A DNA stretch of 64,000 nucleotides from Leptogorgia sarmentosa (lineage: Eukaryota), in assembly GCA_964658305.1 (NCBI GenBank), contig OZ210884.1:7750001-7814000 (forward strand), in the 5' to 3' direction. This document shows positions 24,814 to 31,584 of this stretch, one piece after another; within the stretch, counting starts at the first letter, position 1; every line of letters begins with the position of its first letter. The notes below the pieces were generated by a model. It ran no database searches, had not been told where the DNA came from, and saw only the letters and a program-made list of their open reading frames with translations. A program made the position numbers and the translations under genes.

Positions 24814-27800
24814 ATGAGATATCTGGCAGTTGTAACGTTTCTCGCTTGCGCGCTGTTTTGCGCAAATGCGCATTCGATATTACAGAGCATTGGTGATGAA
24901 TTAATTCCCACACAACCAACAGAGGAAATTGGAGATATAGTCGATGAAGTGCCAGACGAAACAACAGATGATGGCGTGGACGAGGTATTGTACTTATAAA
25001 TTAGCCATGATTTAACCATGAACCCGCATCTCCCCGGTTGTCTCGCCGAAATTCTGTGTAAAGACATCCCAACAAATGCTGTAAAGCTGTAAAAATTCTC
25101 TATGTTTAAAAAGCTTTATATAGCGAATCTTTTTTGTTAAATTACAATAATAGCATGCAGCACTAGTGCTAATGACGAAATCCAGAAAGTCGAGGACAAG
25201 ATAGCCACCACAGCTTAGAATAGCCAAATGTTGGAATAATTCTGATCCATTGCCAGTTTTTATTATTTTAAACCCTTAAAACAGTTATTAATCATTCATA
25301 GCCTTGATGTTTTGGCCCGCCAAGTATGTCAACGATTATCCTAACATTGTTTAATTGTTAGTGAAAAAGAAAAATCTTGTTATGTCATTTTTTTATCCTA
25401 TCTAAAAGTTTTTTATTCTTACTTTAATGATGGGTTACAGCCGTGCTTGAAGCCTTGAATGCCTTTATTTAGTTAAATATATAACTTTATGTGGGTCGTC
25501 AAGCTGTGCCTGTCATCGTAGCTATATACCGCGCAACCAGTAAAAGTGTTCCTACTTTATAATTGCGCAAATTCATAATTACGTCATTATCGAGGTCATT
25601 ATTGTATGTCATTAGGCTTAATCCATGGTTCAAGATCGCCTAAAATCGCCTGAGATCGCCTGAGAACGCCTAAAATTGCTCAAGATTGCCTATGATCGAC
25701 ATATATTACATGCAAGGAAATAAGCATTCTGGACTTAATAGGGGGTCTGAATTGGTCAGGATTGTTAGTATTAATGTTGAGCCGTCATTTTCAAGTACCT
25801 TGACTCATAGTTACTCATAGTTACTCATAGTTGCGTAATTAGTTGCTAATTCGAAATAGTTTGTTTCAGTTTTGATTCCATCGTTATTGATGAGATCATT
25901 GTTTTTTCACGTTTTTCAGACATTCATTACACATTTTTTAAACTTTTTCTTTCATTACTGAAAATTTTACTAAAATAATTAATATTAATAATAATATTTT
26001 ATATTATTTAGGATCTTTATCCATTTCCAACCAATCGCAATCTTATGGACCTAAAGGATTGTTTGGTAAGAGTTTTGTATGTATGTATTTCAGGTGATTG
26101 TAACATAGCTAAATGTAACGTCAGTGGCTTTCTCGTGTTGCTACTACGTGTTAATACCGCATGAAATTTCAAGCTACAATGTTTTGCCATATTCTCAAGC
26201 ATGCGATAGCGAGTACAATCAGGGATTGATAGCACAAATGATGTTTGGAAATTTCGCCACAATTTAACGAGCCGCCTAACTCGTTTATTACCATAATGAC
26301 ATAATTGCACTTACACCGATTAACCTCAGCGTAGCCAAAGCTCTTTCCCCAGCTTCTCTGGCGATATTTCAGTCAATAGATATCGCAGTTCTGTATGTAA
26401 GTTCGCTTTAGAATGCTTTCCGAAAGGTTGTGTTGCACAAAAAAGACAAAATTTATTTGGGTTTTTTTCCAGATGAAGTGTTCTGCTGCTGTTTATGACT
26501 GTATCAAAGATGGTGGAGACAGCGATGAATGTATTGATATACTAATGGATTGCTCTCAGGAGTGCAAAAAGGTGTGTATGCATACTAAATTATTTATGCT
26601 AAAGCTTGAGTTGCCAATTAATAAAATTTTCAAACTTTTTCCTAAATGCAAGTGGACACGGAACTCTTTTTAATGAGTTCTTATGCATGAAATAATGGTA
26701 CGCAATGCCTGAGTGCTTGCTATTTTGTAACGTTTCAAGTACTTGTGTACCAGCAATCCTTGCTGGAGATTCGAATATCTAGATCTATTTTCTATGGAAA
26801 CTTTTCAAAAATCCCCACTCTTTTTCCAGCATGGCTACAATGGGGAGGAAGACAATGAAAGTATTGATGAGTATTTTGAGGATGAGGATGAATTTGATGA
26901 GGAGAATGATGATGATTACGAGGAAGATTATGATGAGGAGGAAGATGATGATGATTTTGATGATGATGAAGGTGATGAAGGTGATGAAGGTGATGTTGAT
27001 GATGATGAAGATGATGTTGATGATGATGATAATGAAGATGATGATGAAGATGATGAAGATGATGATGATGGGTTTTATGACTATGATGACGAGGAAGATG
27101 ATTTTGATGAAGATGACGATGACGATGAAGTTAACGAAAATGAAGAGGAGGAAGAGGAGGAAGAGGAGGAAGAGGAGGAAGAACAAGACATGTACGGTGA
27201 GGATGATTGGCAAAATCGTCGAAAAAGACGTCATGCAGTTCGAAAGGGAAGGTTTCGTCCTGGGTGGAAAAGACCAATTCACCGCGGAGCCAAGGTTCAC
27301 CCTGGAGGCTGTAGAATGGTAGGAATAACATTTCTATAGTACGAAGAACAATTATTTTTTTTTAATATTGAATATCATCTTCATGTGGGGGGGGGGGGGG
27401 GCAGACAGTGTAATGCTACACCCAAACCGGTCTCGCTAGGTAAACGGCTGTGGCAGAATTTGCTTTTTAATTAATCCCGTATGGGAATTTGCAGCAACTG
27501 AAAATTAGCTCAAAGGGTGTTAGTTCATTAATTTTTTATTTCGTTTGTTTTTCTTGAATTTGTGATCTAGCGTTGCAGGAAAGAGTTTATTCAATGCCGC
27601 AAGAGTGGAGGGGGATTTAAATGTTATAGACAAGTTGGAATGTGCATGGGAAAGTGTAAAAAGGTTGGTAGCGTTCAACACAAAAGTTATAGCAACATGC
27701 ACAACAACACACAATAAAAGAGCCTTACACTTCGTGCAACATCTGTGTACAGTAATGTACGGTAAGTACGACAATGACGTCATTTTACCATATAAGGGCA

Positions 27801-30800: not shown

Positions 30801-31584
30801 GAATGATTATGTCATGATATTGCTAAAATAACGAAACTTCGGTCCGCACCTATGCCTTGACGATGTAGAAATAATGTAAACACAACACAGTGTAATGGCG
30901 ACATAAGATGCCTTTAAAATATTTGATGTAAAAAAAAATCGTTTCAGTATAAGATGCATTTAATTATACCCCCCTCATCTTTGTACGAACTAGATATGAA
31001 AAGTATCAAACTGACATCAAAAAGGTTAACGTTAATCATCAGTTCGTTTATTTTAACAGAAAAAGTGCTCCGTGGAAATGATTGAATGTAGTTTGAAGAA
31101 TGTTAAACAAACGAATGTCTTTGTCTGCCTGAAAAAGAAGGAAGTTTGTATGAGAAATTGTATGAAGGTATATGACTTAATTTTGATTGGATGATAAATG
31201 TTTATCAGCCGTATCATAACCGTTTAATTGTTGATCAACTATCATCGTTGTTAGCTTGCAAAATTACCTCTTAACACAAACTTAACTACAAATCCAAGTT
31301 TAGATTTTCAAATAATTTTTTTAATTGTGTGTTAAAAACACAGTGCATATCAATTAGGTTTGTTCTTATATCAATTTTAAACTTTTGCCTTCAAGAACAA
31401 CAAAAAGCCTGTAAACTCCACAGCAAAACAGATTTCAAAGAAGATTTCCAAGCTGACATCCAAGCTGACATCCAAACTGACATCCAAGAAGCCGAAATTT
31501 ACAAAATGGAATAAAAAAGGAAATAAGGCTACTTCCCGTGGATCAAGAAAACAGATGAAAAAGGGTTCAAACAAGTTAGGATAA
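24814..31584 (+). CDS. Secreted multi-module Cys-rich precursor (~500 aa): signal peptide, Asp/Glu tract, RRKRR site, five CX3CX6CXnCX6CX3C modules, Lys-rich tail
   Basis: Phase-0 exons 24814-24984, 26012-26065, 26473-26571, 26830-27318, 27571-27663, (27721-27761 uncertain), 28476-28574, 29666-29707, 29776-29874, 30123-30173, 31060-31167, 31396-31584 join in frame. Repeated 93-108 nt exons encode C-x6-C-x8/12-C-x6-C-x3-C followed by basic residues. There is a probable 3'-UTR intron (donor ~31595, acceptor ~32400). Confidence 0.8.
30212..30706. mobile_element. Harbinger-like non-autonomous element carrying a 10-bp (CATCCAACAT)n tandem array
   Basis: GGCC-type left end, ~30 copies of CAT/TATCCAACAT at 30316-30632 and inverted CAACATGTTG-type flanks. 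A related remnant lies at ~44228-44590. Confidence 0.65.

Follow-up and report, generated by a model that had tools for sequence, protein, structure and literature searches.

A spliced Leptogorgia sarmentosa gene for a predicted secreted precursor with five putative helical hairpins and oppositely charged halves

In Hydra, the antimicrobial periculin-1 consists of an N-terminal region that is anionic and a C-terminal region that is cationic and has eight cysteines, and in arminin it is the C-terminus that is active (PMC11767717). The ascidian turgencins are cationic antimicrobials in which six cysteines, paired C1-C6, C2-C5 and C3-C4, hold together a helix-loop-helix (PMC7024374), and most plant alpha-hairpinins, which have a related hairpin motif, are also antimicrobial (PMC11722136). 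Disulfide-linked helical hairpins are likewise formed by neurotoxin B-IV of Cerebratulus lacteus and acrorhagin I of Actinia equina, both single small peptides with four disulfides. In this study we analysed a window of 64,000 nucleotides of the Leptogorgia sarmentosa genome (assembly GCA_964658305.1, contig OZ210884.1, positions 7,750,001 to 7,814,000 of the forward strand; all coordinates below are those of this whole stretch). The window contains, at 24814-31584 on the + strand, a gene whose product appears to be built like an array of disulfide-stapled helical hairpins and laid out like an anionic-pro antimicrobial precursor. The helical-hairpin fold and the acidic-pro logic each have precedent, and we found no report in the open-access literature of the two combined in a glycosylated five-module precursor.

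This is a real spliced gene. Its 12 coding exons specify a precursor of 512 amino acids, and all 11 coding introns are GT..AG introns in phase 0. The exon model, which the original prediction had left to be checked against transcripts, is now backed by contigs of runs X5 and X7, both from one study, in which 10 of the 11 coding introns are seen as exact spliced joints, while run X1, from a second study, has joints at two of those ten. Runs X1, X2, X5 and X7 carry no RNA label on record, and transcription is judged from the spliced joints themselves; run X2 reads through the introns unbroken and has none of these joints. No joint is listed for intron 1, where a bordering repeat (25971-26008) was skipped by the tool. 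This intron is supported indirectly, in that 135 letters of exon 1 (24848-24982) are covered by a 508-nt X7 contig whose depth of 642.5 equals that of the contig carrying joints 2 and 3. An additional intron of 806 nt (31595-32400), absent from the earlier description, lies in the 3' untranslated region and has its joint in X1, X5 and X7.

The first half of the precursor is acidic. Residues 1 to about 19 form the sole hydrophobic peak of the protein (Kyte-Doolittle 2.7) and are a predicted signal peptide, with the cleavage site placed by eye, suggesting that the precursor is secreted; they are encoded, together with the start of the acidic region, by exon 1 (24814-24984), partly covered by the X7 contig. 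The exons that follow were placed from sequence and joints. Residues 21-237 have a net charge of -111, including module 1 (net -6), which is divided between exon 2 (26012-26065, linker and Cys1) and exon 3 (26473-26571, Cys2-Cys6). Exon 4 (26830-27318, with joints on both sides) begins with an Asp/Glu tract (26830-27216); the 129 residues from the start of this exon to the motif RRKRR are 72% Asp/Glu (52 D, 41 E). RRKRR itself (27217-27231, residues 238-242) is the only R-x-K/R-R furin consensus in the protein, and after it exon 4 continues with a basic leader and Cys1 of module 2.

Residues 243-512 have a net charge of +61, distributed over the leader (+8), modules 2-5 (+8, +4, +2 and +5), the linkers between them (+6, +2 and +4) and the tail (+22). 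The core of module 2 is encoded by exon 5 (27571-27663), a Pro/Arg-rich linker with Cys1 of module 3 by exon 6 (28234-28278), and the core of module 3, with an N-S-T sequon at the turn predicted by AlphaFold, by exon 7 (28476-28574). Exon 8 (29666-29707) supplies the two-sequon linker and Cys1 of module 4, exon 9 (29776-29874) the core of module 4, exon 10 (30123-30173) a linker with one sequon, an odd Cys399 and Cys1 of module 5, and exon 11 (31060-31167) the core of module 5. The tail, encoded by exon 12 (31396-31594), has 64 residues, none of them acidic, and ends in KLG before the stop codon (31582-31584); its DNA includes 3.5 copies of a 12-bp unit, read as KLTS x3. The original prediction had described an acidic module 1 followed by more than 100 mostly Asp/Glu residues and RRKRR, then a basic region with a Lys-rich tail, (KLTS)x3 and a final KLG, and all of these elements were found. 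Its broader claim, of charge-segregated halves around a cleavage site, is upheld for the segregation and for a furin-type motif; the charges do not balance (-111 versus +61).

The original prediction also called the protein a polyprotein, and here the sequence gives grounds for doubt. Six N-x-S/T sequons, which had been overlooked, lie in the basic half, in addition to a seventh in the acidic tract. Modules 3 and 4 each have one of the six at the predicted turn, and two module ends immediately precede sequons. With the additional Cys399, also overlooked earlier, the basic half has 25 cysteines, an odd number. Separate release of single hairpins is doubtful because there is one furin consensus, the module ends offer only KK or RK, which is no furin consensus, sequons adjoin them, and the cysteine count is odd. 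It is more likely that the basic half stays largely in one piece, perhaps linked through Cys399.

The five modules follow the mirror-symmetric spacing C-x3-C-x6-C-x(8-12)-C-x6-C-x3-C, at residues 74-106, 269-300, 316-348, 363-395 and 413-448, with inner loops of 9, 8, 9, 9 and 12 residues. The spacing, as first claimed, is present in 5/5. The five-cysteine core encoded by a single exon occurs five times in the six frames of the window, every time within this gene, whereas 200 locally shuffled windows had 0.005 occurrences on average and never more than 1. No sixth module was found elsewhere inside the 64-kb window. Every module is split in the same way, Cys1 closing a short linker exon and Cys2-Cys6 occupying the core exon. 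The exon pairs 7/9 and 8/10 each have 79% DNA identity, and since neither score was reached by any of 200 codon shuffles, the gene has expanded at least once through duplication of an exon pair. That the five linker exons all share one origin is unsupported, with one of the ten pairs (exons 8 and 10) exceeding codon shuffles.

The modules are predicted to be helix-turn-helix units. An AlphaFold model of the module-3 exon, for which the input held five of the six cysteines (without Cys1), eight intron-derived terminal residues and an alignment of five sequences, has helices at 2-12 and 17-36 joined by a short turn (mean pLDDT 74, pTM 0.44). Thus the helical hairpins of the original prediction have been modelled for one module core, and their nested disulfides (C1-C6, C2-C5 and C3-C4) would be those expected from the mirror spacing. 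Structure searches with the module-3 model listed generic helix pairs only (best Z 5.4); entries 1VIB and 6UX5 were not listed in these fold searches, which counts as no evidence against the fold. Sequence searches of the PDB gave no match below E 0.1 and did not list B-IV or acrorhagin, and no sequence match of the Leptogorgia modules to B-IV or acrorhagin I was found. A weak likeness to CagY repeats in the same searches (E 0.93) was read as convergence. No Pfam family reached its cut-off in the eight of 12 coding exons that were scanned; on module 1, DUF326 stayed below its curated cut-off (17.6 versus 20.4 bits) and Toxin_21, also below cut-off, was rejected.

The modules seem to have relatives in hexacorals. 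A profile search found an uncharacterised Montipora protein (P0013; E 3.8e-4, six stretches), which has no Pfam family at cut-off and through which a set of 11 proteins, P0013 being one, was reached in Montipora, Acropora, Nematostella, Actinostola and other sources, including Nematostella LOC5507853, Montipora XP_068696084.1, Acropora LOC141883240 and Actinostola QZH41_017076. Several isoforms are listed for the Nematostella protein. The nine members examined (P0013, P0019 and P0022-P0028) begin with a signal-like N-terminus and combine acidic spacers that end in Arg with 6-12 four-cysteine units in tandem per protein (65 in total), of the form C-x6-C-x(6-14)-C-x6-C, predicted to be helix pairs. 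This plan, tandem C-x6-C-xn-C-x6-C core included, is shared with the Leptogorgia precursor, although the latter has six cysteines per module instead of four, and one long acidic tract with RRKRR in place of short repeated acidic spacers followed by Arg-His-Pro. The hexacoral proteins have no Lys-rich tail, seven of the nine have no odd cysteine, and their function is undescribed. Their Arg-His-Pro leader and P-T-x-P-P linker were not seen by eye in the Leptogorgia precursor, which has a loose Pro-rich likeness only.

Similarity extends beyond the cysteines, with an hhalign probability of 85.7% over 28 columns. When the hexacoral profile was scored on modules 1-5, the same score was reached by 2, 70, 0, 10 and 394 of 1000 shuffles with fixed cysteines, so that three of the five modules are clear and modules 2 and 5 are not. 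In the reciprocal test at most 10 of 200 shuffles reached the score for 60 of the 65 hexacoral units, and forward exceeded reversed scores in 65/65, with the provisos that these units are not mutually independent and that helix periodicity could converge, as in the CagY likeness. Taken together, the hexacoral family is probably homologous to the Leptogorgia gene. For the Actinostola protein, a structural model of two units shows four helices (pLDDT 80), the second hairpin of which could be aligned with acrorhagin I (6UX5; Z 4.3, rmsd 2.4, 46/50 residues, rank 7) as well as with vicilin-buried peptide 8 (Z 3.7, rmsd 1.4, 40 residues aligned). Both alignments fall within the range of unrelated proteins in the same results, and Foldseek with the hexacoral relative's model gave nothing below E 2.7. 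The open-access literature yielded no publication dealing with the Leptogorgia protein or with its hexacoral relatives, and the family is apparently undescribed.

Closer homologues were found as exons in other samples. The profile search that yielded P0013, an exhaustive one over 1.84 billion representatives, returned six matches at E up to 0.001. One sequence (P0007) is a near-identical exon read-through, probably from the same species, while the exon read-throughs P0009, P0010 and P0011 come from other samples, share 61-73% identity with module 3 and apparently have the same phase-0 boundaries, as judged from flanking residues. Despite substitutions, the N-x-S/T sequon at the turn is kept in all eight homologous exon sequences examined (P0009-P0011 and P0014-P0018). 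In the clusters of both P0010 and P0011 the longest contig is given as 784,522 bases, and a single orthologous gene may thus have supplied the two as separate modules. P0012 was discarded as repetitive and likely a spurious frame. A word-index search with the five-exon alignment returned one of 21 candidates, the near-identical exon read-through, and no annotated full-length orthologue; two metagenome scans confirmed 0/139 and 0/550 pattern matches and yielded no orthologous locus with flanks. The ESM Atlas gave no usable match for P0026 or P0004.

A possible role for this protein could be that of a cationic defence precursor latched by its own charge, following a logic like that of periculin. 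We favour this reading tentatively, and it may well prove wrong. On entering the secretory pathway, the precursor would form its hairpins and become glycosylated; inside the granule the polycationic half would be bound and masked by the polyacid, probably together with Ca2+; and release of the basic half, its tail perhaps amidated at the terminal Gly, would follow from a furin-type cut at RRKRR and from dilution into seawater. The freed cationic, likely glycosylated four-hairpin protein could then act as an effector of innate defence by attaching to anionic surfaces, microbial or other. The order of signal peptide, anionic region, basic site and cationic cysteine-rich C-terminus agrees with that of anionic-pro precursors in architecture only. 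With periculin-1 the precursor shares the anionic N-terminal and cationic cysteine-rich C-terminal regions, and with the turgencins a nested six-cysteine cationic helix-loop-helix, the nesting in Leptogorgia being suggested by spacing. However, periculin, arminin and the turgencins are single small mature peptides with no tandem glycosylated modules, and there is no evidence of homology.

The strong cationic charge of module 2 (+8), of its flanks (+8 and +6, one of them Pro/Arg-rich) and of the tail (+22) argues for a defence role, as does the plan of acidic spacer, Arg and hairpins in the likely hexacoral relatives, which is found in non-calcifying anemones as well. Several observations weigh against it. 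The acidic half goes far beyond what neutralisation needs; modules 3 and 4 carry only +4 and +2, each with a sequon at its turn; the hydrophobic moment of the tail is moderate, with best 18-residue windows of 0.59-0.62 (no control); and the KLTS repeat is perhaps a simple-repeat expansion. The conserved turn sequon would be more in keeping with a structural glycoprotein than with a membrane-active peptide, and acidic-then-basic proteins are also present in the biomineral matrix of red coral.

These last points lead to a second reading, in which the protein is a precursor of structural or biomineral matrix, its Asp/Glu tract binding Ca2+ in the sclerite, the axis or the secretory granule and its basic half acting as a glycosylated, possibly disulfide-linked scaffold or cross-linker; in a variant, the two halves could form a coacervate. 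We regard this as possible, although on the unlikely side. It would account for the long Asp/Glu tract, the six sequons and the odd cysteine of the basic half, and a secreted Asp/Glu-rich region of low complexity, such as this one, is what characterises acidic matrix proteins of the CARP/SAARP type. The red coral skeletome includes D-rich low-complexity proteins and nine strongly alkaline octocoral-specific proteins, and in its supplement CR_106 is acidic and then Arg-rich while CR_21 has a D-rich stretch, RKKR and a basic part (PMC7853314); scleritin is basic with predicted glycosylation (PMC3365975). Turn sequons are found in 3/7 Montipora, 3/7 Acropora, 0/12 Nematostella and 0/6 Actinostola units of the four named hexacoral proteins, a weak point in favour. 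The coral matrix proteins (CARP/SAARP and Corallium CR_37, CR_48, CR_21 and CR_106) thus resemble the precursor in being secreted with an Asp/Glu-rich tract and, in some cases, a basic C-terminal part, but they have no hairpin modules among the rows listed, and the Leptogorgia tract is predicted to be cut off. Short-motif searches of two supplements from other species, with entries limited to 400 characters, detected the module cysteine pattern in none of the skeletome rows listed (PMC7853314, PMC7533068). The furin consensus flanks the tract as it would a pro-region, and the occurrence of the likely related family in non-calcifying anemones also argues against this reading.

It is unlikely that the gene encodes a multi-domain nematocyte venom toxin precursor with B-IV- or acrorhagin I-like hairpins acting on arthropod prey. 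Conserved glycosylation at the turn is unusual among small neurotoxins. The comparison with B-IV began with the claim in the original prediction that module 2 resembles this toxin minus its innermost disulfide. B-II to B-IV have eight cysteines, at 12, 16, 23, 26, 37, 41, 48 and 52, and B-I has six (PMC6410017). Without the inner pair B-IV reads C-x3-C-x6-C-x17-C-x6-C-x3-C (PMC6410017), so that the spacing of the outer three pairs is identical and the claim stands to that extent, but the loop is 17 residues long versus 8-12, and with six cysteines per module the Leptogorgia protein falls outside the eight-cysteine B-neurotoxins and beta-nemertides. In module 2 an Arg-Lys directly follows Cys2, like Arg17-Lys18 of B-IV, yet module 2 is generally rich in Arg and Lys, and it is the only one of the five modules with an Arg at that place. 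The alignment of the hexacoral relative's model to 6UX5 would favour a toxin, although its Z score ties with those of unrelated helical proteins and the model is that of a relative rather than of the Leptogorgia protein. Octocoral nematocyst extract does contain helical hairpins with three and four disulfides, Esi20 and Esi21, and multi-domain cysteine-rich proteins (PMC11896702, PMC13608440). U-GRTX-Esi20 and Esi21 of Eunicella singularis are secreted and predicted to be disulfide-stabilised helical hairpins, Esi20 with three disulfides, but as described they are single peptides of 36-48 amino acids from intronless genes (PMC11896702), which sets them apart from a gene with 12 coding exons and five modules. 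More improbable still is a signalling or metal-handling protein of the secretory granule, with hormone-like or metal-binding hairpins and a granin-like acidic tract. Arg|His-Pro sites after acidic spacers resemble those of neuropeptide precursors, and the hexacoral relatives have such sites repeatedly. In Nematostella, sensory neurons are reported to have an acrorhagin orthologue (PMC11896702), and zinc and nickel are listed as metals bound by acrorhagin I (PMC13608440), whereas the metal binding of acrorhagin is ascribed to His and the Leptogorgia modules have none, DUF326 does not reach its cut-off on module 1, and the very high cationic charge would be left unexplained.

Several other features of the locus were recorded. 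A TATA-like element, with a function suggested by sequence, lies at 24756-24764 (+), about 50 nt 5' of the ATG, and the non-coding last exon (32401-32572, +; joint in X1, X5 and X7) runs to about 32572, close to the second of its AATAAA signals at 32507 and 32555. Among the rows listed, one X2 contig differs from exon 1 at 24893-24939 by substitutions and small indels. Intron 7 has stretches of very high depth in the DNA-like run X2 (28800-29620), likely interspersed repeats, and intron 10 a 10-bp tandem array of 31.7 copies (30316-30632). Upstream are two tandem, near-identical ABCC-type transporter genes (527-6328 and 9000-17135, +), recognised by eye from their motifs. Downstream are an intronless rhodopsin-family G protein-coupled receptor gene (38761-39909, -; PF00001, E 1.5e-20) and a pair of intronless paralogous open reading frames (42851-44068 and 48127-49338, -), one with sub-threshold FUT8/NodZ matches and the other with 51 homologues, the two named ones from the octocorals Dendronephthya gigantea (63%) and Paramuricea clavata (50%). 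An exon of an actinoporin-like pore-forming toxin is located at 62536-63039 (+; Pfam PF06369, E 7e-51), preceded at 61869 to about 62050 by a possible first actinoporin exon, signal-like and then Arg-rich with W-W-R-R, which may be a pro-region or a separate peptide gene.

A wider interpretation, which we consider quite unlikely in its entirety, would make the gene the octocoral branch of an undescribed Anthozoa-wide hairpin-repeat family. The precursor would then be a self-neutralising polyelectrolyte that is cut once, giving a Ca2+-binding polyacid with an acidic hairpin and a disulfide-linked cationic glycoprotein, and it would link the formation of mineral or mucus with antimicrobial defence, with the family as a possible source pool of acrorhagin-like toxins. 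Few octocoral defence or matrix proteins have been characterised, and a verified gene with small, easily expressed modules makes function directly testable. The gene also offers a clean case of modular growth through duplication of phase-0 exon pairs, and it draws attention to a family of secreted repeat proteins, apparently undescribed, in the model and reef species Nematostella, Acropora and Montipora, for which expression atlases and knock-outs already exist.

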